From sequence record PV467749.1: 64,000 nt of DNA. The stretch is one strand, 5' to 3'. The DNA is from a phage. The notes beneath the pieces are model-generated. The model saw only the letters and a list, made by a program, of their open reading frames with translations, ran no database searches and was not told the origin of the DNA. Made by a program: the position numbers and the translations under genes. Positions 301 through 30,530 of the stretch are shown piece by piece (position 1 is the first letter of the stretch; each line of letters begins with the position of its first letter).

Positions 301-330
301 AAAATCCCTGCCAAAAGACAGGGATGAAAA
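301..330 (-). terminator. intrinsic terminator-like hairpin
   Basis: inverted repeat TCCCTG/CAGGGA at 305..324; A-run on + strand just before it gives a T-run after the hairpin on the minus strand; ~95 nt downstream of CDS 420..617. Confidence 0.45.
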
Positions 331-683: not shown

Positions 684-2123
684 TTACATATTTTCTTCAG
701 CAAATTCTGCCAGTGGTGAACGAACGACACCTTCTAGTTCGATTACACGACAACCGTCCCAGTTCTTGAACTTCTCGGTAACATAAGTTAGACCGCTGTT
801 AACTGGACTAATGAATTTAGAGTCAATCTGGCTCAAGTTGCCCATAATAACCACTTTACAGTTCATTCCTGCACGAGTCAGGATTGTTTTAGCCTGAGCA
901 GGAGTAATGTTCTGGAATTCATCCACTACTAGGATAGTGTTTGTGAAAGAACGCCCACGAACGAAGTTTAGTGCTTTGAACTGGATAACATTACGTTTCA
1001 TGATTTCTTCGATACTGCCTTGTGGGTTAGCATCATCTTTGTGTAGGAATTCCAACGCATCAATGGCAGCTCCACAGAATGGAATCACCTTCTCTGCCTC
1101 AGAACCTGGCAAGAAACCAATGTCTTCGAATTGGGAATCTTGTGTTTTGGAGAAGATGATACGGTCGTATTTTTTCTTCTCTAGTACTAGCTCCAGTGCA
1201 GTAGCAATGGTGATCAATGTTTTACCAGTACCTGCGGAACCCAACAGTACTGTTAGATGAACATCAGGATCTAGAATACTGTTGATTGCTAGTGCTTGCT
1301 GAATATTCTTAGCCTTGATACCCCACACTTTAGCACGTAAAGCGACTGATTGTCCAACGTCTTGGAATACAAGAATATCTTCTGGTGTTAAAGTACCATC
1401 GTCTTCTTCAATTGCCGATTGACCTTCGTACACAAATAGAACATCAGCATTATCATATAGGTAATCACCGATGCAAATATTTTGTGGCATGATATGTTCA
1501 ATCAAGCTTTTTGGAATGTAGTGATACAAACGGCGACCAACTTGTTCAGATTGGATAGACACATCAGTTAGATTGCTATACACATCCCAAAAATCTAGGT
1601 CGAGGTGATGTTGACCAATGTGAATCAAATCACTATCACCAATCACGATATCATGACGGTAATCTTGAACTTCTACTCCGTAGCTTAGAGCCTTGATACG
1701 CATATTGATATCACGGGTAACCAGTACTGAATCAGTTGCTAATGCTACTAAAATGATTTTATCATCTGGTACTGTGCTTTTTAGAAGAGTTTGAACTTTC
1801 TCTTCGTTACCAGCAGTACGAATTAGTGCTTCAGCTTCTTCGCTTGTAATAACAAACAATTTGCTTTCAGGACTCATATTAGTATGAACATCAGCAATAT
1901 TAACACCAGTACTACTAATTTCTTCATGTGATGCATCAGAAAGGATTGCTTCAATGTTACGGATTGCAACACGAGCATCACGGGAAACATCCACATTACG
2001 ACTTTTGATTGAATCCAATTCTTCAAGTACTGTGAACGGTAGAATGATAGCTGCTCCATCAAAAGCAATGGTAGCATTTGGATCAGATAGTAGTACGTTT
2101 GTGTCAATTGTATATTTTTTCAT
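684..2123 (-). CDS. phoH: PhoH-like ATPase with N-terminal PIN domain (PhoH2/YlaK-type)
   Basis: 479 aa; N-terminal PIN-like acidic residues (IDTNVL...LEELD); Walker A LLGSAGTGKT; Walker B-like VVDEFQN. Confidence 0.85.
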   Translation of the reverse strand: MKKYTIDTNVLLSDPNATIAFDGAAIILPFTVLEELDSIKSRNVDVSRDARVAIRNIEAILSDASHEEISSTGVNIADVHTNMSPESKLFVITSEEAEALIRTAGNEEKVQTLLKSTVPDDKIILVALATDSVLVTRDINMRIKALSYGVEVQDYRHDIVIGDSDLIHIGQHHLDLDFWDVYSNLTDVSIQSEQVGRRLYHYIPKSLIEHIMPQNICIGDYLYDNADVLFVYEGQSAIEEDDGTLTPEDILVFQDVGQSVALRAKVWGIKAKNIQQALAINSILDPDVHLTVLLGSAGTGKTLITIATALELVLEKKKYDRIIFSKTQDSQFEDIGFLPGSEAEKVIPFCGAAIDALEFLHKDDANPQGSIEEIMKRNVIQFKALNFVRGRSFTNTILVVDEFQNITPAQAKTILTRAGMNCKVVIMGNLSQIDSKFISPVNSGLTYVTEKFKNWDGCRVIELEGVVRSPLAEFAEENM

Positions 2124-2184: not shown

Positions 2185-2487
2185 TTACATGCTCGGTTCG
2201 TATTCAACATAACATCTTGAACCACGAGCCTTTTCCTCCCAGCATTCCTGGTAAACTAGTTGACCAATTGATACTGGATCTCTTGATAACCCATTACGAA
2301 CTTCACCAGTACTGGTTTTATAAGTAAATGAGCATTTATTTTCATTACATTGACCTAATCCTATTACAGTCGCTGTATTGTAATGAATATTATAACGTTT
2401 AGTGTTCTCATGATATGAACTGAACCATAGAACACCTATACCTAACAGTGTTGTGCAAATAAGACTCTTGATATGTGTTGAAATCAT
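2185..2487 (-). CDS. hypothetical small protein with hydrophobic N-terminus (signal/TM-like)
   Basis: 100 aa ORF; N-terminal hydrophobic stretch LICTTLLGIGVLWF; several Cys. Confidence 0.5.
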   Translation of the reverse strand: MISTHIKSLICTTLLGIGVLWFSSYHENTKRYNIHYNTATVIGLGQCNENKCSFTYKTSTGEVRNGLSRDPVSIGQLVYQECWEEKARGSRCYVEYEPSM

Positions 2488-2804
2488 AGTGCATTAAATC
2501 CATTAGTTAAGTAAGTTTCAATATTAACTTTCCCTACTGGATTACTACTATGTACATAGTATTTAAATGGTTCTTTAATATTATGCTCAAACATATAATC
2601 AATTAGAAATTTGGCAAAAGTGTATCCAGTTTTCTCATCTGTACTCAAGTCACCCAAGTCATGGTCAAATGAGACAAATGCTGGAATTCCATTTTTGATT
2701 ACGTATTCACATGCACTTTCGTAGTCACGACACAATACCATCTCTTGGTCAGGATAATATTTTTGATAATCACGAATATCATCCAAGAACATTGAGTACG
2801 ACAT
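2484..2804 (-). CDS. hypothetical protein, receiver-domain-like (tentative)
   Basis: 106 aa; motifs FLDDIRD, SFDHDLG, VHSSNPVG recalled from memory as a receiver-like phage family; 4-nt overlap with upstream gene. Confidence 0.45.
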   Translation of the reverse strand: MSYSMFLDDIRDYQKYYPDQEMVLCRDYESACEYVIKNGIPAFVSFDHDLGDLSTDEKTGYTFAKFLIDYMFEHNIKEPFKYYVHSSNPVGKVNIETYLTNGFNAL

Positions 2805-2813
2805 TTTAAACTC

Positions 2814-3365
2814 CTATAGATAGCTGATTAGTAAGTTTTCTTTTTGTACAAGATACTCTAATTCTTGTTTCGCAGTTCCGATGAAGTTCTGTGTCATAAG
2901 ATTATTATATCCTGCTTCTCGATTTTGTCCCTTCGAATAACGAGAGATGTGACATAAATTTACACCAGCCACCTCTGCACTAGCATGTTTGCCATATGCA
3001 TAATTATCACGAAGTTTTTTAAGTTCAGCATAAGTCATTTCATAACTATAGCTATGTGAGTGACCCTCTGGAAACAATTCAAGTGATTTTAATGGAGACA
3101 GGCGACTTTTGTCAATGATATAGTTCATTTCTTCTTGAACTTCACGCTGTAACGCATCTTCTAATGACTTATCAGTACTTTCAACTGTTCCACCACATGC
3201 ACCCAACAATCCATCCCAACGCACTTGTAGGAGTACTAAGTTAACCACTGGGATATCATTTAGTTCATAACCAGCGTATGGGGTACATTCTTTTGCATAA
3301 AAGAAACAGAATACAAAATTTGCACGTTTCCCCAGTTGTCCCAGTGGTACTTCAGCTTTACTCAT
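2814..3365 (-). CDS. Nudix-like hydrolase (imperfect Nudix box)
   Basis: 183 aa; GGTVESTDKSLEDALQREVQEE contains the REVxEE core of the Nudix signature, but the G-x5-E-x7 spacing is not canonical. Confidence 0.45.
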   Translation of the reverse strand: MSKAEVPLGQLGKRANFVFCFFYAKECTPYAGYELNDIPVVNLVLLQVRWDGLLGACGGTVESTDKSLEDALQREVQEEMNYIIDKSRLSPLKSLELFPEGHSHSYSYEMTYAELKKLRDNYAYGKHASAEVAGVNLCHISRYSKGQNREAGYNNLMTQNFIGTAKQELEYLVQKENLLISYL

Positions 3366-4114
3366 CGCATTCGTTCCTTAATTATAGTTTCAACCTGTGG
3401 AATTGCTTTCGTCGCAGGTTTGATGACTTTCTCATTAAAAAGAAAATCATTATCATTTTTTCGGATGTTAACATTTACACTATAGCATGGAAGTGCACCA
3501 GCTAGTCTGGACCATACCAGTACTGTATCACTACTTCCAATAACTACAACTGTATCATTTTCTGTGAGACTTTTCAACACTTCATTTCGTTCTTCATAAA
3601 TGGGGAGACGTACCCCATCAACGTAGCGATGATACTCACCAATCATCACTACATTTGGTTTTGCAAAAACATCAGCTTTAGGGATATATGGTTCATAACC
3701 ACAATTAATGACATTGTAATCATCGGTATTAATAGAAAAGTTCTCAATTACTTCACATAAATTGCCGTGTAGTTTGAGTTCGGTTCCACCAATTCTAGTA
3801 TATAGATCATCCATATTAGAAGTCATGTGTAAAAAACAATCACCATACAAATCTTCTAATGATTTAATAAAGTAATGCATTTCATTAGGATGACATTCAC
3901 CTAATTTTACACGCAATGTATTATAAAATGAATGAACTATATGATACTTAGAACTAAGTCGTGCAATGTTACAAACATCATTAATTTTGAAATTGTCCCA
4001 CAACCCATCATCAAAGCGGAATGGTTCCATCCCGCTCTCAACTGAAAGACCTGCCCCTGAAATTATAAGTAATCTTTTGTTCCCAGCATTTTGTATAAAT
4101 TTATCTGATATCAC
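3362..4114 (-). CDS. Sir2-family (sirtuin-like) NAD-dependent protein
   Basis: 250 aa; GAGLSVESGMEPFR matches the sirtuin NAD-binding motif GAG(I/L)S.ESG.P.FR; downstream LKLHGN (candidate catalytic His); no obvious CxxC zinc ribbon. Confidence 0.7.
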   Translation of the reverse strand: MISDKFIQNAGNKRLLIISGAGLSVESGMEPFRFDDGLWDNFKINDVCNIARLSSKYHIVHSFYNTLRVKLGECHPNEMHYFIKSLEDLYGDCFLHMTSNMDDLYTRIGGTELKLHGNLCEVIENFSINTDDYNVINCGYEPYIPKADVFAKPNVVMIGEYHRYVDGVRLPIYEERNEVLKSLTENDTVVVIGSSDTVLVWSRLAGALPCYSVNVNIRKNDNDFLFNEKVIKPATKAIPQVETIIKERMR

Positions 4115-4123
4115 ATTTACTCC

Positions 4124-4315
4124 TTATATAAAAAGTATCAAGTTTAATACTAAAAATACAATGATAGCAATATGATAGACATACATCCACTTATTGTGTC
4201 CATGTTTATTACCATTCCTGAATTCTCGGTATAAACATTTAGTATGATTGTATAACACCACACAAATAAACACAACTATGAAACAAAAAATCCACTCGTA
4301 AACTATGTATGCCAT
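4124..4315 (-). CDS. small hydrophobic membrane protein (63 aa)
   Basis: two hydrophobic segments (WIFCFIVVFICVVLY; IAIIVFLVLNLILFI). Confidence 0.4.
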   Translation of the reverse strand: MAYIVYEWIFCFIVVFICVVLYNHTKCLYREFRNGNKHGHNKWMYVYHIAIIVFLVLNLILFI

Positions 4316-4346: not shown

Positions 4347-4940
4347 TCAGTATTTCAAAATATCAAACTCTGGACTAACACTTGTTACATTATCACTGAC
4401 AATTTTGAAAATAGACTCAACACGTTCATGTAACTGAACATTGGTTTCTTCTTGAACTTCAATATACGCTGACATGGATGCAATTGCATGATAAGTCCCA
4501 CTTCCGACAGCAGTAATTTGTGTTTTAGGTTGCAGTACTGAAAAGTCTTCTTGAACTTCATAAATCGTATGATTATGAAGAATAATGAACTGACCACCAC
4601 CAACGTCTTGTGATGCATCACGAGCACCCCATTCATCTTTAAACATTTGACGAATGATAGGAATAACTTTCAGTACTAGATACTGTGAAAAGGTTTCCCC
4701 TGCAACTTGTTCTGGTAGAGTTAGGTTGTAATTCAACAACTGTCCCATGCGGAACGAGGTAGTATACCCCAACGCCATTACTTCTTTAGTGCGAGTAAGA
4801 CCATCCTCATTGAGTTTAATGAACTCTTTCTCAAACACTTTAGGCTCAGTTTGAACTGCTTTAGTGAAACCATTGCTTCCTAATTTATCACCAGCGATGA
4901 AGGAAGATGTGCCATTTGTGTGAGCGATAATACAAGTCAT
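4347..4940 (-). CDS. HslV-like (Ntn-hydrolase / proteasome beta-type) peptidase
   Basis: likely start at ATG 4940..4938 (AAGGAG RBS; ATGA overlap with upstream stop), giving Met-Thr N-terminus MTCIIAHTNGTSSFIAGD as in HslV (TTIVSVRRNG..IAGD); later GSGTYHAIAS like HslV GSGG; track ORF 4347..5009 starts too early. Confidence 0.65.
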   Translation of the reverse strand: MTCIIAHTNGTSSFIAGDKLGSNGFTKAVQTEPKVFEKEFIKLNEDGLTRTKEVMALGYTTSFRMGQLLNYNLTLPEQVAGETFSQYLVLKVIPIIRQMFKDEWGARDASQDVGGGQFIILHNHTIYEVQEDFSVLQPKTQITAVGSGTYHAIASMSAYIEVQEETNVQLHERVESIFKIVSDNVTSVSPEFDILKY

Positions 4941-5197
4941 GAAATAACTCCTTGTGCAAAAAGTGCCGTATACAACCAGTATATCAGCAACCCTAGTGTA
5001 AGTAAACATGCTCCGTAAGAAATTGATAGAACATAGTAAATTCCTGCTTCTAACTTGGATGCAAATTTGTGTGTACTGGAATCCATAAAACCACGTTTGT
5101 AGTCTTTATAGATGAAACATGTTAAAACTAATGTAATGCAATATACAATAGTTGTTGCATAAAAAACAAGAGATGTTAAGTTTTGTAAATTTGTCAT
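4937..5197 (-). CDS. small membrane protein (86 aa)
   Basis: two predicted TM helices; AGGAG RBS sits inside a 7-bp hairpin (ATACACT/AGTGTAT) at 5212..5228. Confidence 0.5.
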   Translation of the reverse strand: MTNLQNLTSLVFYATTIVYCITLVLTCFIYKDYKRGFMDSSTHKFASKLEAGIYYVLSISYGACLLTLGLLIYWLYTALFAQGVIS

Positions 5198-5289
5198 AGT
5201 TTATACACTCCTAGTGTATGTGAACTTATAACAAAGGATGTACCACTTTATCATCCTCTTATTATAATATTATTATTTTGTATCTAATA

Positions 5290-5898
5290 CTAATGAATGA
5301 TACTACCTAATTCGAGCAACTGATCTGGTGTAAGTCTCACAACTTCATTACCACGAACCTTACTAACCTCCACTAACAATTCTGGAGGAATACCATTCGC
5401 TGCATATAACGCAAATAGAACACCAACCTTAGTTGATAGCTGTTCAGCAAAAATAGTCATTTGGCGAACTGATATGTATGTGTCATCACTATTTCGTGCT
5501 TTACTTTCGATTGACACATTATGTAGACCTAGAATTGAGTCCTTCATCATGTATCTGTTTTCTATATTAGCACTAAAGAATGCGATAGTGCAAGAAGAAT
5601 TACAATATCTTTCAACAATAATTGTTAAATTGTTATCATTGACAAAATTTCCTAGTGCCACTCCCGCATCAAAATCACCACCAGGTGACGTAATGATGAT
5701 AGTGTCAAATGGGTGTGTTTCTCTAAAAACCATCAAACGGTTTACAGTATTTTCAGTTAAAGTTGAAATGAACTGAACTGTCTGTTTAGATTCATCATAT
5801 CTAATGATACTTTTTCTTTCAACACCTGCACTTGCAGGAAAGTTAATTAAGAAAATAATAATAATAGATTGGATGATTTCTTTACATAATCGTACCAC
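5290..5898 (-). CDS. secreted ClpP/SppA-like (S14/S49-type) serine peptidase-like protein
   Basis: 202 aa; hydrophobic signal-like N-terminus; IITSPGGDFDAGVALGNF resembles the ClpP INSPGG region; track start is GTG at 5898. Confidence 0.45.
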   Translation of the reverse strand: MVRLCKEIIQSIIIIFLINFPASAGVERKSIIRYDESKQTVQFISTLTENTVNRLMVFRETHPFDTIIITSPGGDFDAGVALGNFVNDNNLTIIVERYCNSSCTIAFFSANIENRYMMKDSILGLHNVSIESKARNSDDTYISVRQMTIFAEQLSTKVGVLFALYAANGIPPELLVEVSKVRGNEVVRLTPDQLLELGSIIH

Positions 5899-6033
5899 TG
5901 GTTAACCCTCTTAGTTGATTGTTGATTACATAAATAATATTATAGGAAGATTTAACTTAAGTCAAATTGTTTTTTATATCACTTCACAAATTCCCTCACA
6001 GAATCACCCCGCCTTTTTACCTTCTTTTGAATG

Positions 6034-6061
6034 ATTATATCACACTAATGTATAATGTCTA
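6034..6061 (-). promoter_or_regulatory. sigma70-like early promoter candidate (TAGACA-N16-TGATATAAT)
   Basis: minus strand TAGACA (6061..6056), 16-nt spacer including TGA, TATAAT (6039..6034); in the 250-bp noncoding region upstream of CDS 5290..5898; a second weaker TTGACT-N15-TATAAT lies at 5939..5965. Confidence 0.45.
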
Positions 6062-6149
6062 TGCTTTTGTCAACAAATAACGTGGTAGTACTGAACTCGT
6101 TGTTGGTTCTAAGAGTTTTCCTGAAATTCAAATTATCGTGTACTAACAA

Positions 6150-6180
6150 AAGAAAAAGGAGCCTTATGGCTCCTTTTTTT
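6150..6180 (-). terminator. strong bidirectional intrinsic terminator
   Basis: AAAAAGGAGCC-TTAT-GGCTCCTTTTT perfect stem flanked by A-run and T-run; immediately 3' of CDS 6179..6445. Confidence 0.75.
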
Positions 6181-6445
6181 ATTCTACAGTATTAAGCTTC
6201 TGACAAATCATGTCAGCTTCAACACGGTCTTTATAATAAATGGTAAAACCAAATTTACCAGTTACTTTATACTCTTTACAAGTTAAACAATTTACAATGT
6301 AGTACTTGTTGTTTTGTGCTGAAAATCGTACTTCATGATTACGCATCACTGGTGGAGTAGTATTATCATTTAATACCATCATCACTAAGAGTACAAGAAT
6401 CACAACTGCAAATGGAATACCTAAAATCAAGAAAGTCAAAGTCAC
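6179..6445 (-). CDS. hypothetical protein with N-terminal TM helix (88 aa)
   Basis: N-terminus MTLTFLILGIPFAVVILVLLVMMVL hydrophobic. Confidence 0.5.
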   Translation of the reverse strand: MTLTFLILGIPFAVVILVLLVMMVLNDNTTPPVMRNHEVRFSAQNNKYYIVNCLTCKEYKVTGKFGFTIYYKDRVEADMICQKLNTVE

Positions 6446-6918
6446 AACCCCTTATCATAAATGCAATTTACAATAATCCCAGCATCTTCCAGTACTTTAA
6501 TAGCTTCTGGTGGAGTGCGAGGATAACTTTTGTGATAAATCACGCGAGCAATACCACTTCCCGCGATCAACTTAGAACAAGTATAGCATGGTTGCAGCGT
6601 TGTGTAAAGTGTTGCTCCCTGACGTTCGGTAGGTGAACTGTATAACAATGCATTCATTTCAGCATGGATTTCATGGATATTACTCCATTCATGGTGTTCA
6701 TGCTTTGCGTCATCGCTAACCCAGTCTTGGAAACGTCCACCATTAACTAAGTGCTCATTAGCGTCACAGCAGTTAGGTTGTTTAGATGGAGTGCCATTAT
6801 AACCAGTACTCAATACTCGGTTATTTTTAACAATAACACAACCAACTTTCTGTGAAATGCATTTACTCTCTTCAGCCACGACTTCGGCTATCTTCAACCA
6901 CGTCAAGTGTTTCATCAT
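6442..6918 (-). CDS. cd: dCMP deaminase (cytidine/deoxycytidylate deaminase family)
   Basis: 158 aa; zinc-ligand motifs HAEMNAL and PCYTCSKLI (H-A-E ... P-C-x-x-C). Confidence 0.85.
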   Translation of the reverse strand: MMKHLTWLKIAEVVAEESKCISQKVGCVIVKNNRVLSTGYNGTPSKQPNCCDANEHLVNGGRFQDWVSDDAKHEHHEWSNIHEIHAEMNALLYSSPTERQGATLYTTLQPCYTCSKLIAGSGIARVIYHKSYPRTPPEAIKVLEDAGIIVNCIYDKGL

Positions 6919-8828: not shown

Positions 8829-9524
8829 TTAGACCCACTCTTCCACGCCACCGCGACGTTTGACGAGATACTTACCTTCTTCGTTGCGTGGACCAAGGAT
8901 GATACCATCAATGAAACCATGTTCACCGTATTCGAGTGCTTCTTCAGCGTTCAACCACAGGTCACGATCCGCATCTTTCAGTAGTTGTTCGTGTGATACA
9001 CCAACTGCTTCAGCGATTTCTTTAGTCAGTAGTGTGTTCAATGCATCAGAGTGTTTCAAGGAAATCTTCTGATCAGTAATCAGACCCTGAGTACCGGAAC
9101 TTACTTGGTGACACATGAAGTAAGAACGCTTACCACCTAGACGGAAACCTTTAGTACCAACTACTGATTGTGTATAGCAACCCATTGATGCTGCATAACC
9201 CATTACTACTGTACGGATAGGAGATACACAAGACTTAGCAATGTCAGCGATACCCAAACCTGCGTGTACTGAACCACCAGGAGAACTAATGTAGAAGGTA
9301 ATTGGTTCAGAACCCTGAGAATCCAACCACACCAATTGTTGCTTGATGATATGTGCCATTTGGTCATTGAAGTCAGTATCAAGGAAAATGATACGGTCTT
9401 GCATCATACGAGATGCTAGATCATAAGTACGTTCTGCACCATTAACTTTTTCAACTACATAAGGAATAGAAATGTTGCGAACTTCACCACCAGCATAACC
9501 ACCAAAATTGAATTGTTCAACCAT
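8829..9524 (-). CDS. clpP: ATP-dependent Clp protease proteolytic subunit ClpP
   Basis: 231 aa; SSPGGSVHAGLGI, GYAASMG (catalytic Ser region) and MCHQ (His) motifs; RBS AGAGGAAA; ATG 9524..9522. Confidence 0.85.
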   Translation of the reverse strand: MVEQFNFGGYAGGEVRNISIPYVVEKVNGAERTYDLASRMMQDRIIFLDTDFNDQMAHIIKQQLVWLDSQGSEPITFYISSPGGSVHAGLGIADIAKSCVSPIRTVVMGYAASMGCYTQSVVGTKGFRLGGKRSYFMCHQVSSGTQGLITDQKISLKHSDALNTLLTKEIAEAVGVSHEQLLKDADRDLWLNAEEALEYGEHGFIDGIILGPRNEEGKYLVKRRGGVEEWV

Positions 9525-12612: not shown

Positions 12613-13815
12613 TTATAGATAATACTTTCCAATGTAAAGTTTATTACTTAGTGATAGCTGGACGTGACAAGGTTTTTCTTGGTAGTAACGAGTTGATGAT
12701 GTTTTATTTTCAGTCGGTGGGAAGAAAGGAGAACGGTATCCGTTCCATGTACCAAATGATACATGTTCGTTTAAATCCACATCCATTGTCATAATACCAT
12801 TAGCATCAATTTCAACTGGATACGCACTGTATCGTTCAAATACATCAGTGTATTGAAGAATATAATCACCATTACGACCATAATAACTTCTGGTTGTATT
12901 GTTCTTTACACCAAAGAACACACGATATGCTTGGTCACCAACTTTAGACATGAACGGTACGTTCTCGTTGAATCGTCCATTACTCATTATATCATCAGGA
13001 TTGATTTCTTCGTACTTTACTTTCAAATCTTGTGCTTTAAACGACTTATCACTTATCAGTACTGGAATATTGCTTTCACATAATGGGTTACTGCGATTTC
13101 GTTGGATATTTTGCCAAAATGCATTAGCTTTAACAATTTCATCTTGAACTGTAGTTTTTACATTCAGTGCAGCACTTGGTTCTAACGCATAAGTTTCAAG
13201 ACGAGCATTAAGAGCATATGTCCCACGAGTAGTATTATATACTAAGTGATACTTGGAACTCTTATCAGAAAATGAAAACTCTTTAGTTTTCTTGATACAA
13301 ATAGCATTTACTTTACCACAATAATAGTAATCTTCTTTATTGTGTCTAAAACCATCACCCACTTTCAATTTAGAAACAACTTCTTTTTGATGTTCTTTCT
13401 TATTCTCCTTCTCAACCAATTTAGCAAAGGTTTTAGTTTTACCGTTAATTAGTTCTAAACTATTATTAAAGAACATAGGTTCAACAAATACACCCTTAAC
13501 AATATCATTGTTGATGATAAGGTCGTTCATGTTTTTAGCACTCACCAAGAACTCGAAACCTTCAGGGTGACGTATGGTGAAGTATGTTTCGCGAGCATGA
13601 ACAGTGAGCTTATGTACCACAGAAAACCCAATTGTAGGCACATTATCAATCCATAGTGAAGGTAGATTGTTTTTCTTAGCCCAGTACTCGGCCTTTTCTT
13701 TTTTAGTCTCAAACGCTTTTGTGTGTGATTTTGTAGCATCTATAATGTAACCAGTAACTTGGTTATGATTTACATATGAACGAGCCACAAATAACTTCTC
13801 TGGAAAATCCATCAA
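12613..13815 (-). CDS. hypothetical protein (400 aa)
   Basis: long ORF, no motif recognised. Confidence 0.6.
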   Translation of the reverse strand: MMDFPEKLFVARSYVNHNQVTGYIIDATKSHTKAFETKKEKAEYWAKKNNLPSLWIDNVPTIGFSVVHKLTVHARETYFTIRHPEGFEFLVSAKNMNDLIINNDIVKGVFVEPMFFNNSLELINGKTKTFAKLVEKENKKEHQKEVVSKLKVGDGFRHNKEDYYYCGKVNAICIKKTKEFSFSDKSSKYHLVYNTTRGTYALNARLETYALEPSAALNVKTTVQDEIVKANAFWQNIQRNRSNPLCESNIPVLISDKSFKAQDLKVKYEEINPDDIMSNGRFNENVPFMSKVGDQAYRVFFGVKNNTTRSYYGRNGDYILQYTDVFERYSAYPVEIDANGIMTMDVDLNEHVSFGTWNGYRSPFFPPTENKTSSTRYYQEKPCHVQLSLSNKLYIGKYYL

Positions 13816-14231
13816 ACAGTCCTCATTGTGCTAATTGCTTTTAATGTGTTAAACAATGCACCATATTTTACTTGCATTAGTTGATCCCCAGTAGGAAGAT
13901 TCATACGCATAACAGACATGTCTTCAACCATTTCAGATGTACATAGTACTGCTACACATGTAGTTGCATCATTTAATCCGGCTTCATTGAATTTAGCGAA
14001 TGGCACTTTTCCCTGCTTACAAAGGTCATCATAATAAGAATTTAACTTATCATGACCACCAGCATTTAGTACTACAATAGTTTCGTGGTCATAATACCAT
14101 TCATCAATAATAGTACTGAAAGCAGTACCTTCATATTCTTTAATTAGTTTTATGCCAGCATGAAATGCTTGAATGCCAGCTTGGACACCTTGACAGTACA
14201 TGTTTGTTAAACAATATAATTTCATTTCCAT
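13812..14231 (-). CDS. hypothetical protein
   Basis: 139 aa ORF; 4-nt overlap with downstream gene. Confidence 0.55.
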   Translation of the reverse strand: MEMKLYCLTNMYCQGVQAGIQAFHAGIKLIKEYEGTAFSTIIDEWYYDHETIVVLNAGGHDKLNSYYDDLCKQGKVPFAKFNEAGLNDATTCVAVLCTSEMVEDMSVMRMNLPTGDQLMQVKYGALFNTLKAISTMRTV

Positions 14232-14765: not shown

Positions 14766-15492
14766 CTTTTTCTTTACGTAAGTATCTCATCCCTCCACTT
14801 TGGGGAGTTGCAAGAGTCAAATCACCAGTTAAGAACTGACTATCAATCCAGATACGATTACCATAAATGAGTGGGTCGGATACTGCGGTATGACCACTAA
14901 AGACGCAATGGATACCATCAAGTCTAGGGACGTAATATGTGTTATTTTTCTTGCAGTAGTCGAATGTATCACGGTCCCACAAGCACTTCTCAATTATATC
15001 AGCACTAAGTGATTTTGTCCCACTAACGAAACGTTCCCATGTTGTATATTCCAATGGAACACCAGCATGAACTAGTCCAATCTTCAATCCTCGGTGATTG
15101 ATTTGGATAATCATAGGGAGATCCTTTAAGTACTGACGGAAGAACTGTATACCTGTCTCACCAACTTCATCAATGAACTTATCTCCACCATTTTGTACCC
15201 AACAGTGATGCCAGTCACGGTGAGTTTCAGAATCAACACACATGATCTCGTGGTTCCCAGCAATCATAAAACGGTTTTCACCGAAAAGGAATTCAAACAG
15301 TAGTTTGGAATTCTGGTCACCACGGTCAATAACATCACCTACACAAAAAACATAGTCATTATTGGTGATACCAAATTCTTTCTTGGTAGCATCCCACAGT
15401 TTTCCGTTGCCGTGTAAATCACCAACGATATATAAATCTTTATCATCCGGTACTGTAACTTCCAAAAAATGTTTCATTATTGTTCCAACCAT
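14734..15492 (-). CDS. PPP-family Ser/Thr protein phosphatase (lambda-phosphatase/ApaH-like)
   Basis: 252 aa; GDLHG, GDVIDRG, GNHE signature motifs. Confidence 0.8.
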   Translation of the reverse strand: MVGTIMKHFLEVTVPDDKDLYIVGDLHGNGKLWDATKKEFGITNNDYVFCVGDVIDRGDQNSKLLFEFLFGENRFMIAGNHEIMCVDSETHRDWHHCWVQNGGDKFIDEVGETGIQFFRQYLKDLPMIIQINHRGLKIGLVHAGVPLEYTTWERFVSGTKSLSADIIEKCLWDRDTFDYCKKNNTYYVPRLDGIHCVFSGHTAVSDPLIYGNRIWIDSQFLTGDLTLATPQSGGMRYLRKEKDEYSFNRFKR

Positions 15493-15731
15493 ATAATGTT
15501 AGTGTGTTTTGTAACTTGTGTTCCTGCAAAAGAACCATCTTTAAGATACGTATTAACTTTGAAACGCCATTCACCACCGCTAATATACATATCAGCGATA
15601 ATGTACTTCCCATAACCCCTTGAGTTTATCAAACGTACTTCTTGTCCAATATACTTCGGCTTCAAATCATTAATAAAATCATCAGCCAAAGACATAAGAT
15701 ATCGCAAATGTGAATAGTCGGTGTTGAACAT
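15477..15731 (-). CDS. hypothetical protein
   Basis: probable start ATG 15731..15729 (TAATG overlap with upstream stop; GAGAAAG RBS-like); track ORF 15477..15806 starts earlier. Confidence 0.5.
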   Translation of the reverse strand: MFNTDYSHLRYLMSLADDFINDLKPKYIGQEVRLINSRGYGKYIIADMYISGGEWRFKVNTYLKDGSFAGTQVTKHTNIIWLEQ

Positions 15732-15946
15732 TATTTCTTTCTCTTGAAGTGGGATATAATATCTTTTGTTATTGAGATAAAAAGATACACCATAGTTACA
15801 GGCCAAATTATAGCCATCAGTGCTGCTGATTGTAGACTCATTGCAGTTATGATTTCATCTTTGAAACATTTCCAATTCAGTACTAGAAAGTTACATATAA
15901 ATGAGCAAAACGCAACAAATCCATATATTGCAAAAAAGGTAGTCAT
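15731..15946 (-). CDS. small membrane protein (71 aa)
   Basis: two hydrophobic helices (FFAIYGFVAFCSFICNFLVL; ALMAIIWPVTMVYLFISI). Confidence 0.45.
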   Translation of the reverse strand: MTTFFAIYGFVAFCSFICNFLVLNWKCFKDEIITAMSLQSAALMAIIWPVTMVYLFISITKDIISHFKRKK

Positions 15947-18143: not shown

Positions 18144-18390
18144 TGTCAATCCTCTTGAATTTAGCATTATTCGAATAAGTATATGAATGTCCAAAATCAT
18201 TTACACCATGCACATTCAATACACCGTCGATGAAATAGATTCGGTCAATGGTGAGTTCACGTTTATAATCCGAATCATCATACCAGCACAGAACACGAAT
18301 ACCTTTATACTTTGTAGTTAGCTCTTTTTCTAATGTAACTAAGTACTCAATATAACTTTTGAATAGCTCTAAGTCCTGCTCAAACATCAC
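18136..18390 (-). CDS. hypothetical protein
   Basis: 84 aa ORF; 4-nt overlap with upstream gene. Confidence 0.5.
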   Translation of the reverse strand: MMFEQDLELFKSYIEYLVTLEKELTTKYKGIRVLCWYDDSDYKRELTIDRIYFIDGVLNVHGVNDFGHSYTYSNNAKFKRIDNE

Positions 18391-18647
18391 TGTTCCTCGT
18401 ATAATTCTATGTCATCGACACCAACTTGGCGAATTGCATTGCTTCTTTTGAATGTATCTTTTTCAAATAAACACACAGTTAAACGTATTTCACACTTCAA
18501 TGCACTGTAATAAATCATATCAATAACACCATATGTTTCATACATTTCTACGTATACATTTCGTCCTAAGTACTTTTCTTCTAAATCAGTAATTAGACTA
18601 TTGATAAGATTACCTATCTGTGATATATCTGTGTGAAATTTATCCAT
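18387..18647 (-). CDS. hypothetical protein
   Basis: 86 aa; GAGAGGA RBS upstream of ATG. Confidence 0.5.
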   Translation of the reverse strand: MDKFHTDISQIGNLINSLITDLEEKYLGRNVYVEMYETYGVIDMIYYSALKCEIRLTVCLFEKDTFKRSNAIRQVGVDDIELYEEQ

Positions 18648-18872: not shown

Positions 18873-19805
18873 TTAGAAATTTCCTTCAGCCACTTGGAAA
18901 ACTTTCAACCCAAGTAACTTACGCCACATGAATACAACTTGATTGCGGTCATCATAAACCTTTTTAACATCGTAATGATCAACCACATTTTTCATGTACA
19001 GGTCGAATTTTACAACATCATCAGGACGTTTATCATCAATGTCTCGCATAAACAATGCATCATAAGGAACACCCCAATTCTTAAGCCACTGTTCGGTATC
19101 AGCACGACACCCTTCAGTACGCCCACTCATGACGATAATCTTGCGTTTATGAAAAACTGCTTCTGCGATAATAGACAAAATAACTTCGTCGTCTGGTGTA
19201 TCCTGGAGTACAGTACTTTCATCGAACGGGTTACGTCCCCATTTATGAGCAAGAGTACCGTCGATATCAACGATAATAGCAGCTTCTCGTGAATTACCAT
19301 AGTAACCAATGTGTAATGCCTTACTATAATAGTACGTATCTGCCATAGTGTCAATGATATTATCTTGTACTGAACGCTCACGCTGGAGGTTATATTTCTT
19401 ACAAAGTTTTACGAACTCTTTAATCTTAAAGAATTCATGAACATCTGCACCACGGTCTTCATTAGGTACAAAATCATCATAGAAGTTCTTTTCTTTGTAA
19501 TCATAACCATTATCTATAGCCCATACTTTCCATAGATTACGGAAATGTTGTTTAAGGTTCGTATCGGATATGATGATGTTCCAACCATTCTCTGCTGCTG
19601 AATTTGCTGCACTGAACTGTAAATTAGTTACGTACTGCTCATTAGCATCGTTGAATTTGTAAGCATCATGTGACCCAGCCATAGATTCACGAATATCATC
19701 ACGGTTGATGTTGATAGTCTTGGATTTGGCTTTTTTAATCTCTTGCACTGCCCATGTAGTTTTACCACACCCAGGCAATCCAACTGTTAGTGTGATAGTT
19801 GGCAT
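18873..19805 (-). CDS. pseT: polynucleotide 5'-kinase/3'-phosphatase (T4 PseT-like)
   Basis: 310 aa; N-terminal kinase P-loop GLPGCGKT; C-terminal HAD phosphatase motif IVDIDGTL; N-terminus resembles T4 Pnk as recalled. Confidence 0.85.
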   Translation of the reverse strand: MPTITLTVGLPGCGKTTWAVQEIKKAKSKTININRDDIRESMAGSHDAYKFNDANEQYVTNLQFSAANSAAENGWNIIISDTNLKQHFRNLWKVWAIDNGYDYKEKNFYDDFVPNEDRGADVHEFFKIKEFVKLCKKYNLQRERSVQDNIIDTMADTYYYSKALHIGYYGNSREAAIIVDIDGTLAHKWGRNPFDESTVLQDTPDDEVILSIIAEAVFHKRKIIVMSGRTEGCRADTEQWLKNWGVPYDALFMRDIDDKRPDDVVKFDLYMKNVVDHYDVKKVYDDRNQVVFMWRKLLGLKVFQVAEGNF

Positions 19806-20627: not shown

Positions 20628-21770
20628 CTAAAAATCCTTTAGTACAATTTTCATGTACTTAATAAGAGTCTCTTTGTAATCGACTTTCTTATTGTTGTAC
20701 ATTGCAAAGGCCAAGCCCTGACGATTCAGTTCATTAGTTAAACACTCCTGAACCTTCTTAGCGAATTCCTTTCGCTCCAAGTGCTTGTGTTCCTTGACGA
20801 AGCTTTCAACTTCATCTTGTAAAGCATTATAGCACGAAAAGACTAGTTGTTCCATTCTTAATATCTTTTGGGTAGCATATTCGTCAGTACTGAACAACTG
20901 TTTTAAATCATCACTCGAACCATTTAATACAGCTTCATATAAATGGGAATCGATTATAATACTGTCTTTCGTTAAATGCAAAGAACAATACCAGTCGGTT
21001 TTGATTTTGCACATTGTACCATTATTTAGGATGCACACAAAACCTTCAATGTCAAGCATTTTCTTAACTTCTTCAACACTTTCTTTGAATGTAGCACGAA
21101 CAGGGAAAGTGTAATGAATATCTTTACCTGTCATGTTAGTACTGTACTGTGCAAGGCATGGAAACTTGTTACGTAATGCAGAACCACATAATAGTTCACC
21201 ACTCTTGCGATGGCGAACGTTTAGTACAAATATTTGTTCAACCTGGTATGGTAATACAATACGGTACTCTGGACTTGTATACTCCAGATTAACAGTATAG
21301 CCCAAACGGTCTGCTTCGTCAATGTATTGATACAAATTTTGGTTCTCATTGAGAAGACGAGTACTGTTAATCGCATGGTCTGAATACAATGCAGTATGTG
21401 ATTTACAACGAATTACACCATCATTATCACGGTAAGTACTGATTACTGAACCATCCAACTTAGGCATCACTACTGCAATGTCATCGAATGTGGTATCAGC
21501 AGGGAACATTGTAGCAGGATTTTCGTAAGCATTGAAGAACTTTTTCATAGTACGAGCAGCACAACGAATCATATCACCGTCTTCATCAATTTCCCACATA
21601 GAACCACGGGTTTCTAATGCATTGGGTTGCATGAAATCGGTATATGATGCTAGACGATAACTGAATACACGATACGTTCCACCAGCAGGACTTTTATGAT
21701 CCACATAAAAGAAAGCCTCACGGGTATTACATAAGTGCATTAAATCTTCATATATTTGTAAAAGGGTCAT
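20628..21770 (-). CDS. rnlA: RNA ligase 1 (T4 RnlA-like)
   Basis: 380 aa; covalent nucleotidyltransferase lysine motif PKLDGS; N-terminal region FFYVDHKSPAGGTYRVFSYRLASY resembles T4 Rnl1 as recalled. Confidence 0.8.
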   Translation of the reverse strand: MTLLQIYEDLMHLCNTREAFFYVDHKSPAGGTYRVFSYRLASYTDFMQPNALETRGSMWEIDEDGDMIRCAARTMKKFFNAYENPATMFPADTTFDDIAVVMPKLDGSVISTYRDNDGVIRCKSHTALYSDHAINSTRLLNENQNLYQYIDEADRLGYTVNLEYTSPEYRIVLPYQVEQIFVLNVRHRKSGELLCGSALRNKFPCLAQYSTNMTGKDIHYTFPVRATFKESVEEVKKMLDIEGFVCILNNGTMCKIKTDWYCSLHLTKDSIIIDSHLYEAVLNGSSDDLKQLFSTDEYATQKILRMEQLVFSCYNALQDEVESFVKEHKHLERKEFAKKVQECLTNELNRQGLAFAMYNNKKVDYKETLIKYMKIVLKDF

Positions 21771-29475: not shown

Positions 29476-30009
29476 TTATTTCCTCATGTATTTTATTACA
29501 TCTTCAAATAGTTTAGTTTTCAGTGCATCATCATTACCAGGTAGAAAAGTACTGAAGCTATTAAAATCTTCATTCTTGGCAAACTCACGCATCTGTGTGG
29601 AACTGTAGCGACTTACATTTCGGTCAATTCCAGCTTGAACTGCCTTGATTGAACAAAAATTATATAACTTCCCATTGTACGTGTCAAGTGTTTTTTGGAA
29701 TGGTTCAAGTCTGTCTGAACCACATATGAAAAGAACATCTAAGTACTTTCCATCCAGTTCTCTCATTATATCAAACAGATTATCTTCTGTATAGATATTT
29801 TCTTGTACAGATGGGTAAAATCCTTCTGTATAGTACATTTTCAGTTCAGGAGGTAATGGGTTTTTGACGGCATCAGTACTGGTACTAAGGAATATTTTCA
29901 AATCAGCATTGTACTGTTCTTGTAGTGCTTGAGCTTTTTCAAACACTAAACCATGACCTCGATGTATTGGGTTACATCTCATGAATGATAGTATACATGT
30001 TTCTTTCAT
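29476..30009 (-). CDS. HxGH-motif nucleotidyltransferase, NadD/NMNAT-like (NMN or NaMN adenylyltransferase candidate)
   Basis: 177 aa; N-terminal SFMRCNPIHRGHG resembles the (T/H)xGH motif of NadD (FDPIHYGH) and related cytidylyltransferase-fold enzymes. Confidence 0.55.
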   Translation of the reverse strand: MKETCILSFMRCNPIHRGHGLVFEKAQALQEQYNADLKIFLSTSTDAVKNPLPPELKMYYTEGFYPSVQENIYTEDNLFDIMRELDGKYLDVLFICGSDRLEPFQKTLDTYNGKLYNFCSIKAVQAGIDRNVSRYSSTQMREFAKNEDFNSFSTFLPGNDDALKTKLFEDVIKYMRK

Positions 30010-30530
30010 ATGTTCTTCATCACCTGACCAATAGATTTAAGATAGTTGATTTTAGCTGGAGTCAAATACTTATCCAGTACTATTAAACAACTAGGGAATG
30101 GTGCACTGTCCGTCTTTTTATCTGGTTCTTCAGGGATACCGAACTTTAAGCGACCTTTTATAAAACAAATACAGTCGCATTCTTTTGATGCATAGTTCTG
30201 AAACGCAACCGTATCGGTACGTGAAGGTACAAGTATCAGTACTGTAGCACCTTTGTTGTATGCATCAACTGCCTTAGATAACCACGTTTTCAAATCACTG
30301 TACGGTGGGTTGAGCCACACGATATTGTTTCCCCAGTCCTGTTCAAGTGAATTGTCTTCTGGTGTAAAGAACTTATCACACAATGCAGTTTCTTTAACAC
30401 AAGCTGCATCTAGTGTAAATTCCCAGAGTTCATCCAAATCTTCAAAGAAATCCTTTGGAGTAGTCCAGTTATCTTTTCCAGTACTGAAATGTACTGATTG
30501 TTTTTTCTTCGAAGCATCCTTCTTCGACAT
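30006..30530 (-). CDS. DNA N6-adenine methyltransferase (phage Dam-like)
   Basis: 174 aa; catalytic motif IV VWLNPPYS (NPPY); 4-nt overlap with the downstream nucleotidyltransferase gene. Confidence 0.75.
   Translation of the reverse strand: MSKKDASKKKQSVHFSTGKDNWTTPKDFFEDLDELWEFTLDAACVKETALCDKFFTPEDNSLEQDWGNNIVWLNPPYSDLKTWLSKAVDAYNKGATVLILVPSRTDTVAFQNYASKECDCICFIKGRLKFGIPEEPDKKTDSAPFPSCLIVLDKYLTPAKINYLKSIGQVMKNI

Follow-up and report, generated by a model that had tools for sequence, protein, structure and literature searches.

The 64,000-nucleotide window of phage sequence record PV467749.1 analysed here carries, on its minus strand, a five-gene block encoding a sirtuin (Sir2), a Nudix hydrolase, a cyclic-phosphate processing receiver-like (cREC) domain protein, a small membrane protein and a PIN-PhoH fusion protein. 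The identities of these genes were established, their catalytic residues are intact and their order is conserved; the Nudix and cREC proteins are fused in a relative, and the clade to which the sirtuin belongs recurs in RNA-repair contexts across phage lineages. Gene context and the literature favour a function in RNA-end processing. We tentatively propose that the block may process phosphorylated RNA ends using NAD+, through steps that are all inferred.

This type of gene neighbourhood has been described before. The genes themselves are annotated in near-identical GenBank genomes, and the neighbourhood was described and interpreted in two studies: the cREC domain was defined by Iyer et al. 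(Viruses 2021, PMC7824862), and a sirtuin-centred neighbourhood, predicted to conduct NAD+-utilising RNA repair, was subsequently reported from comparative genomics by Iyer, Burroughs, Anantharaman & Aravind (Viruses 2022, PMC9503650, section 3.7.3), who made the same prediction for loci of this type. An alternative interpretation of phage sirtuins, based on deacetylation and NAD+, had been put forward in 2016 (Skliros et al., PMC5107563). In the literature, no experimental work placing a phage sirtuin in RNA repair was found. Four features are added to the published description. Firstly, the Nudix enzyme is of the NUDT16 type. Secondly, the RNA-repair context goes together with a sequence signature in the sirtuin clade. 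Thirdly, the published '2H' partner of these sirtuins belongs to the Acb1 family and lies beside the NAD+ salvage gene NAMPT. Fourthly, the lineage of the window has lost, or never gained, both of these genes.

A conserved gene block in jumbo phages

With the Escherichia jumbo phages Ecwhy_1 and fEgEco12 the window shares 99.5% identity, and with PBECO4, 121Q and slurp01, whose genomes are 350-380 kb long, approximately 79%. In the 99.5% identical GenBank records, the first two coding sequences of the block are named Sir2-like protein and NUDIX hydrolase, with boundaries equal to those in the window. The genes of the block, which are separated by no more than 62 nt, are as follows.

3362..4114, minus strand: sirtuin (Sir2/CobB-like, zinc-less phage clade), 250 amino acids (aa); Pfam SIR2, phrog_2162, CobB match, AF2 model
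2814..3365, minus strand: NUDT16-type Nudix hydrolase, 183 aa; Pfam Nudt16-like, NUDIX, NUDT16 match, AF2 model
2484..2804, minus strand: cREC domain protein, 106 aa; Pfam cREC_REC (PF20274) 1.9e-23, phrog_1479 8e-31
2185..2487, minus strand: small membrane protein, 100 aa, overlapping the cREC gene by 4 nt; phrog_14661 'membrane protein' 1.6e-39
684..2123, minus strand: PIN-PhoH fusion (PhoH2-type RNase and ATPase), 479 aa; Pfam PIN_4 3.9e-20 (residues 4-156), PhoH 1.1e-44 (residues 269-473)

The TGA stop codon of the sirtuin gene and the ATG start codon of the Nudix gene share the sequence ATGA, confirming the 4-nt overlap reported in the original prediction, which was made from the window's sequence alone (tcat on the plus strand, 3362-3365). 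The order Sir2–Nudix–cREC–membrane protein–PIN/PhoH was retained in all 15 IMG/VR loci in which this Nudix was found, which come from relatives of approximately 350 kb such as RaK2, GAP32, CBB and BF, while the upstream genes turn over. Across these loci the minimum identity was 43% for the sirtuin and 47% for the Nudix; the PIN-PhoH gene, at 69-94% identity, was the last of the block in every case, and the 100-aa membrane protein always occupied the same position. This synteny suggests that the sirtuin and Nudix are functionally linked. Translational coupling of the two is not universal, as some relatives have an unrelated 123-aa open reading frame (ORF) between them.

The window corresponds to configuration 1 of the published neighbourhoods, and the contexts in rV5-like and T5-like phages reproduce configurations 2 and 3 (PMC9503650). 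It shares with the type case of configuration 1, Serratia phage BF, the phage family, sirtuin clade, Nudix, cREC and PIN-domain genes, and the order in which these are found. Unlike the BF type, the window has no 2H (Acb1-like) gene or adjacent NAMPT, and its Nudix and cREC are separate rather than fused. The original prediction had paired only the sirtuin and Nudix in a coupled module. Their linkage is borne out by the synteny, which persists with sirtuin identity falling to 43%, but the cREC and PIN-PhoH partners had been missed, and RNA-end processing had not been considered.

A zinc-less sirtuin with an intact NAD+ site

The sirtuin gene begins with a GTG codon, preceded by AAGGAG, and encodes the sequence GAGLSVESGMEPFR at residues 20-33, from which the original prediction had recognised an NAD-binding signature. 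Profile searches placed the protein in the SIR2 family, well beyond what chance would give (PF02146: 1.4e-19, 71.1 bits, cut-off 24; phrog_2162: 1e-73). The best match to a sequence of known structure was Escherichia coli CobB (1.6e-21), followed by archaeal Sir2 proteins and SIRT5, and the AF2 model (pLDDT 88.6) matched CobB with a Foldseek TM of 0.76-0.84. The NAD+-binding glycines and serine, and the catalytic histidine (H116), are among the residues invariant in 21 homologues (G20, G22, S27, N100, D102 and H116). Hence the phage sirtuin should bind and cleave NAD+. Among the orthologues, those of the RaK2/K64-1 type (L005 Sir2; P0012, P0014) have GNGLS in place of GAGLS and are missing the FR of the cofactor loop, while keeping N100, D102 and H116; these proteins may bind NAD+ differently or less strongly.

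The comparison with CobB and other class III sirtuins (PDB 1S5P, 6RXJ; SIRT5) reveals a shared fold, with the GAGxS motif, the asparagine and aspartate of TQNID, and the catalytic histidine in common, but only approximately 27% identity. The phage protein differs at multiple sites. Firstly, the Cys4 zinc site is absent: the window sirtuin has two cysteines in this region, neither of which is conserved, and the CxxC...CxxC arrangement is missing from 20 of the 21 clade members. Such zinc loss in phage sirtuins, including that of GAP32, has already been noted (Skliros et al. 2016, PMC5107563). Secondly, TQNID is replaced by TSNMD, and FGE by IGE, which is followed by an extra beta-hairpin. Thirdly, the GTSxxVxP loop, containing the VYP of CobB, has become GSSDTVLVWS, with loss of the proline. 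Fourthly, the arginine of the class III Y-x-x-R motif is displaced by one position (YNTLR, as against YNARR in CobB). By contrast, all of the 80 nearest bacterial sirtuins, none more than 35% identical, retain the glutamine of TQNID and the phenylalanine of FGE, at the positions of S99 and I158 in the window, and 76 of them have at least three cysteines in the zinc region. When genomes were scanned for bacterial equivalents of this zinc-less protein, canonical CobB-like sirtuins were all that emerged, none above 35% identity. A defence-type SIR2 NADase, such as ThsA, DSR or Sir2-HerA, was also considered and rejected, with no PADLOC match at E <= 0.01 and a Pfam match to the classical SIR2 family.

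The same signature in other phage lineages

In total, 59 phage loci encoding sirtuin relatives were found, dereplicated and split into two groups. Group A sirtuins have lost the zinc cysteines and the VxP proline, and contain T[ST]NxDD; they are distributed across the jumbo phage family, T5-like phages, rV5-like phages and two singletons, one of which (L034) retains the proline. Group B phage sirtuins are canonical. RNA-end enzymes adjoined only the group A sirtuins in a Pfam summary of 128 neighbours that covered families occurring at least twice, such that single occurrences beside group B may be missed. The RNA-repair context therefore appears to track the sequence signature of the sirtuin, as the canonical phage sirtuins have neither the signature nor such neighbours.

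The RNA-end enzymes differ between lineages. Close to the sirtuin gene in rV5-like phages are an Rnl1-type RNA ligase (1.9e-13), an AAA_33 kinase and a metallophosphatase, and at one locus (L032) the RNA ligase (4728..5642), cREC (5639..5989) and sirtuin (5998..6759) genes lie end to end. GenBank rV5 records bear out this trio, as 'RNA ligase', 'hypothetical' and 'Sir2-like'. In T5-like phages, the gene beside the sirtuin encodes a phosphatase of the HAD_SAK_2 'Swiss-army-knife RNA repair' type (4.1e-21). The adjacency of the sirtuin and cREC in this second, rV5-like lineage, combined with the Nudix-cREC fusion, links all three genes.

The window itself contains two RNA-repair genes on the same strand as the block, 15 kb from it in the case of the first.

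18873..19805, minus strand: T4-type polynucleotide kinase-phosphatase (Pnkp); Pfam HAD_PNKP 3.6e-43, AAA_33 1.3e-12
20628..21770, minus strand: T4 Rnl1-type RNA ligase; Pfam T4_Rnl1_C 2.6e-16, RNA_lig_T4_1 6.4e-14

Together these constitute a complete T4-type healing and sealing pair. Hence the window resembles the T4 Pnkp-Rnl1 system for tRNA repair in encoding both enzymes, and the rV5-like phages resemble it in that the sirtuin and cREC adjoin an Rnl1-type ligase; T4 itself is not known to use a sirtuin, cREC or NUDT16-type Nudix in this pathway. No tRNA genes were found in the 64 kb.

The Nudix and cREC partners

The Nudix gene has an ATG start codon, with AAGGA in front, and encodes REVQEE at residues 74-79, the core by which the original prediction had identified it. 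Its product matched the Pfam Nudt16-like family (PF22327: 1.5e-18, 67.7 bits, cut-off 27) more strongly than the general NUDIX family (2.4e-7), in addition to phrog_9999 (8e-79), again well beyond chance. Human NUDT16 was the best sequence match in the PDB (8.6e-12). The first 39 PDB matches to the AF2 model (pLDDT 89.1) in Foldseek were all NUDT16, X29 or TIRR, at a TM of approximately 0.8, and the next Nudix protein had a TM of 0.55. The RExxEE of the Nudix box is intact, with R74, E75, E78 and E79 invariant in 12 homologues. The window Nudix is therefore specifically of the NUDT16 type.

The likeness to human NUDT16 and Xenopus X29, which decap U8 snoRNA and hydrolyse ADP-ribose, RNA-ADP-ribose and IDP, extends to subfamily, fold, the Nudix box GGxV(E/D)xxDxSLExxLxRExxEE and the C-terminal FIG(S/T)A. 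In contrast, the phage-encoded protein is only approximately 26% identical to them, with a threonine at the position of NUDT16 F61 and a phenylalanine aligned to H24. Human NUDT16 cleaves ADP-ribose from RNA phosphate ends to which PARP10 or the Tpt1 homologue TRPT1 has attached it (PMC6582358), an activity that counts in favour of the proposed processing of RNA ends.

The NUDT16-like family is rare, accounting for 476 of 1.84 billion cluster representatives at E <= 1e-3. Among its multidomain members is a Nudix-cREC fusion of 295 aa from the protein library, and in Serratia phage BF the two domains likewise form a single ORF of 302 aa (locus L075, 5986..6894). Others, found outside phages, are joined to Ham1/ITPase or HD_4 domains (P0110, P0112, P0146). 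The ITPase fusion, being consistent with the known (d)IDP hydrolysis by NUDT16, suggests that some of the family act in nucleotide sanitation.

The cREC protein scored 83.4 bits against PF20274 (cut-off 27) and has the acidic set of a receiver-like domain, FLDD at residues 6-9 and FDHD at residues 46-49. No relative with a solved structure was found. This domain occurs without a sirtuin in two further contexts: beside Prs, NAMPT and polynucleotide kinase genes in Acinetobacter phage vB_AciJM_313 (L158), and beside tRNA nucleotidyltransferase and HD phosphohydrolase genes in Aeromonas phage CC2 (L157). Being near both RNA-end and NAD+ genes, cREC bridges the two contexts. Neighbours of approximately 250 aa in these two phages were considered as hidden sirtuins, and are not sirtuins. 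The neighbours of cREC in Agrobacterium phage Atu_ph07 were all hypothetical, and hence uninformative.

A possible NAD+-dependent route for RNA-end processing

The proposed route would begin with normal sirtuin chemistry, in which the C1'' of NAD+ is attacked and nicotinamide released. The nucleophile would be an RNA phosphate instead of an acyl-lysine: either the 2'-phosphate left once a 2',3'-cyclic end has been opened and sealed, or a terminal phosphate. The zinc-less sirtuin would thus be an analogue of Tpt1/KptA, generating an RNA-phospho-ADP-ribose intermediate and then ADP-ribose-1'',2''-cyclic phosphate. The cyclic phosphate would be opened by cREC, and the NUDT16-type Nudix would split the ADP-ribose pyrophosphate into AMP and phosphoribose, acting on either the free by-product or its RNA-attached form. 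Conventional healing and sealing would be carried out by the phage's T4-type Pnkp and Rnl1. Such chemistry is plausible, as sirtuins and Tpt1 alike proceed by attack at C1'' followed by attack by the adjacent ribose hydroxyl. In its most specific form, this route would make the zinc-less phage clade the first sirtuins to act on nucleic acid, transferring ADP-ribose from NAD+ to an RNA phosphate to remove a 2'-phosphate or cap an end, with the Nudix and cREC as a dedicated pair for erasure and clean-up; this is a possibility of which we are doubtful.

The logic parallels the Tpt1/KptA RNA 2'-phosphotransferase pathway, in which the Appr>p product is cleared by Cpd1/Poa1. In both, NAD+ would be spent on removing an RNA phosphate, and the resulting ADP-ribose cyclic phosphate then degraded. 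However, Tpt1 has the ADP-ribosyltransferase fold, to which the sirtuin is not homologous, making this an analogy only.

Multiple considerations count against RNA-end processing. The case is one of guilt by association, drawn from three phage lineages only. Proximity is itself weak evidence in large phages of this kind, where many auxiliary early genes are grouped on one strand. Nor is a 2'-phosphotransferase obviously needed, because T4-type Pnkp alone removes cyclic and terminal phosphates. A KptA enzyme is also present in E. coli itself, and the ends that PIN RNases produce are 3'-OH and 5'-P, rather than cyclic phosphates. Furthermore, the closest solved structure to the sirtuin is that of a protein deacylase, CobB, and most relatives carry genes for NAMPT and an Acb1-like enzyme ahead of the block, an arrangement that a counter-defence function fits equally well.

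Alternative functions for the block

The closeness to CobB raises the alternative that the sirtuin is a lysine deacylase remodelling host or phage acylation, for instance through activating acetyl-CoA synthetase, with the Nudix clearing O-acyl-ADP-ribose and ADP-ribose. In favour of this, Nudix enzymes do hydrolyse O-acetyl-ADP-ribose, the closest matches by sequence and by fold are to E. coli CobB and SIRT5, and the NAD+-binding and catalytic residues are intact. The same hypothesis is in print for the sirtuins of KVP40-like phages and GAP32 (PMC5107563). Yet F190 and P221 of CobB, which a CobB-based model in that study places in the acetyl-lysine tunnel and terms strictly conserved, give way in the window protein to I158 and a proline-less loop, in addition to the displacement of the Y-x-x-R arginine and the loss of the zinc module. 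Deacylation would also leave a cyclic-phosphate enzyme fused to the Nudix without a role, and would not account for RNA-end enzymes being the neighbours of the clade. Hence protein deacylation, which the original prediction had offered as an example, is weakened by these replacements, and we regard it as unlikely.

The original prediction had further suggested that the phage manipulates or replenishes the NAD+ pool, possibly to counter NAD+-depleting immunity, and had cited in support a NadD/NMNAT-like gene 25 kb from the block.

29476..30009, minus strand: HIGH-superfamily nucleotidyltransferase; phrog_3041 3.9e-52, phrog_395 4.6e-22 (both 'cytidyltransferase')

The RxNPxHxGH and YSSTxMR motifs of this gene are conserved, and its HxGH and SSTxxR are those of the HIGH superfamily at large. 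The NMNAT identity was not upheld: there was no Pfam match, and no PDB match by either single sequence or profile, leaving only the PHROGs. Judged by its motifs and matches, it is a generic HIGH nucleotidyltransferase, not a demonstrable NMNAT. It overlaps by 4 nt the upstream gene for a Dam-type N6-adenine methyltransferase (30006..30530, minus strand; PF05869, 4.3e-33), and one GenBank record names it 'ribonucleotide reductase A', apparently in error.

A connection with NAD+ salvage is seen in the relatives. NAMPT/NadV is found 1-4 kb upstream of the sirtuin gene in 14 of the 15 related loci, and an Acb1-family 2H phosphodiesterase (PF23474, 3.6e-15) immediately upstream of it in 13; in Serratia phage BF these are at 2723..4201 and 4504..4950 of locus L075, with further examples in L063-L076 and L004-L008. 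NAMPT is also directly upstream of the group A sirtuin of L034, from an unrelated lineage. In the window, neither an Acb1-like 2H gene (tblastn E > 0.9) nor NAMPT/NadV had a match, and the PBECO4-like phages are absent from the NAMPT match list at E <= 1e-30. A 121Q-like relative resembles the window in having neither gene; in the window and in 121Q-like phages, the position is taken by the 63-aa membrane protein and the HslV-like peptidase. As far as gene content can tell, the link between the block and NAD+ salvage is real in the relatives and was lost, or never gained, in the lineage of the window, which keeps the five-gene core. Replenishment of NAD+ is thus echoed only in part: relatives carry NAMPT, and the window lineage does not.

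These genes bear on the alternative that the block is a counter-defence island, with the Nudix and cREC destroying immune signals or toxins that are derived from ADP-ribose or contain cyclic phosphates, and the sirtuin being accessory or regulatory. In the relatives, the Acb1-like 2H enzyme would act alongside, and NAMPT would rebuild NAD+ after attack by host NADases. In addition to the frequency of both genes upstream, and the independent association in L034, the proximity of cREC to Prs, NAMPT and polynucleotide kinase in the Acinetobacter phage fits this explanation, and phage Nudix and cREC domains have been proposed to degrade soluble ADP-ribose signals (Iyer et al., PMC7824862, PMC9503650). 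However, an NAD+-consuming sirtuin makes no sense in an NAD+-sparing system, the window lineage keeps the block in the absence of both NAMPT and the Acb1-like gene across the 64 kb, and none of the block proteins matched a PADLOC or anti-defence family. A counter-defence island thus seems improbable. Both the NadV-NatV salvage pathway (NARP2) and the SirTM-macrodomain pairs are similar to these loci in their NAD+/ADP-ribose enzymology, and the former in that relatives carry NadV beside the sirtuin. They differ in that the window has neither NadV nor a demonstrable NMNAT, and that no macrodomain was among the neighbours tested.

The least probable explanation is that these genes are neighbours through lineage synteny alone, the Nudix conducting RNA decapping or (d)IDP/ITP house-cleaning independently of the sirtuin: all loci with this Nudix come from one phage family, and so are not 15 independent observations, the intervening 123-aa ORF of some relatives separates the two genes, fusions of the wider family to Ham1/ITPase and HD domains point to nucleotide sanitation, and rV5-like and T5-like phages have the sirtuin but not this Nudix, yet the block persists while its upstream flank changes, and the Nudix-cREC fusion and Sir2-cREC adjacency tie the three genes together.

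Surrounding genes and transcription

The block is part of a tight minus-strand series which, from 5' to 3', comprises genes for a ClpP-like protein, an 86-aa ORF, an HslV-like peptidase, a 63-aa membrane protein, the five proteins of the block and a 65-aa ORF. The features flanking the block are as follows.

4124..4315, minus strand: predicted small membrane protein, 63 aa, immediately upstream of the sirtuin gene; ORF call, no significant family match
4347..4940, minus strand: HslV-like peptidase (GenBank start 4940; longest ORF to 5009); phrog_1040 1.9e-23, weak NCBIfam HslV match
5290..5898, minus strand: ClpP-like, weak match (4.4e-4)
6034..6061, minus strand: best match to a sigma-70-like promoter, where the unit may start; TAGACA, 16 nt, TG-TATAAT, 11/12 matches (pattern scan)
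6153..6178, minus strand: terminator-like hairpin upstream of the promoter-like site; 11-bp stem, then T-run
304..325, minus strand: terminator-like hairpin downstream of PIN-PhoH and the 65-aa ORF, possible end of the unit; 9-bp stem, then T-run

The 63-aa membrane protein occupies the slot that is filled by the Acb1-like 2H gene in most relatives. The boundaries of the transcription unit are suggestions only, because neither promoter-like sites (51 found, as against 40.5 +/- 7.1 expected) nor terminators were clearly enriched over shuffled sequence. Likewise, membership of the same operon carries little weight alone, since approximately 60 kb around the block is almost wholly co-directional.

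The HslV-like gene is annotated as 'protease' in fEgEco12 and is present in only some related loci. It is one of three peptidase-like genes inside 5 kb, with the weakly matching ClpP-like gene and a 231-aa ORF (8829..9524, minus strand; GenBank 'protease'), and among them lie a dCMP deaminase ORF and one that matches a virion-structural-protein PHROG. For the unannotated ORFs flanking the block, matches to Pfam and PHROG families were uninformative or absent. Past PIN-PhoH, a few genes further downstream and approximately 2.5 kb beyond the start of the window, fEgEco12 g228 (L001, 3440..4411) encodes a protein of 323 aa that ends in a WGR domain (1.3e-10). WGR domains are known from PARPs.

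Elsewhere, a 139-aa ORF (13812..14231, minus strand) between DNA ligase and phosphatase genes has a weak PTH2 match (1.2e-4), just under the Pfam cut-off. The ORFs of approximately 100 aa at 14-22 kb, which appeared alike by eye, were considered as a paralogous family; blastp supported one weak pair only, 15477..15806 and 18387..18647 (minus strand; 33% identity, E = 4.7e-4).

Significance

As the finding of a genome scan, the identification of this block adds little to what was known. The locus is nevertheless a compact and testable example, offering three proteins that are small, soluble and confidently modelled in structure, from a cultivable E. coli phage. Were the block to process RNA ends as proposed, it would extend sirtuin chemistry from acyl-lysine to RNA phosphates, and would add an NAD+-dependent branch to the RNA repair that phages mount against host anticodon nucleases.

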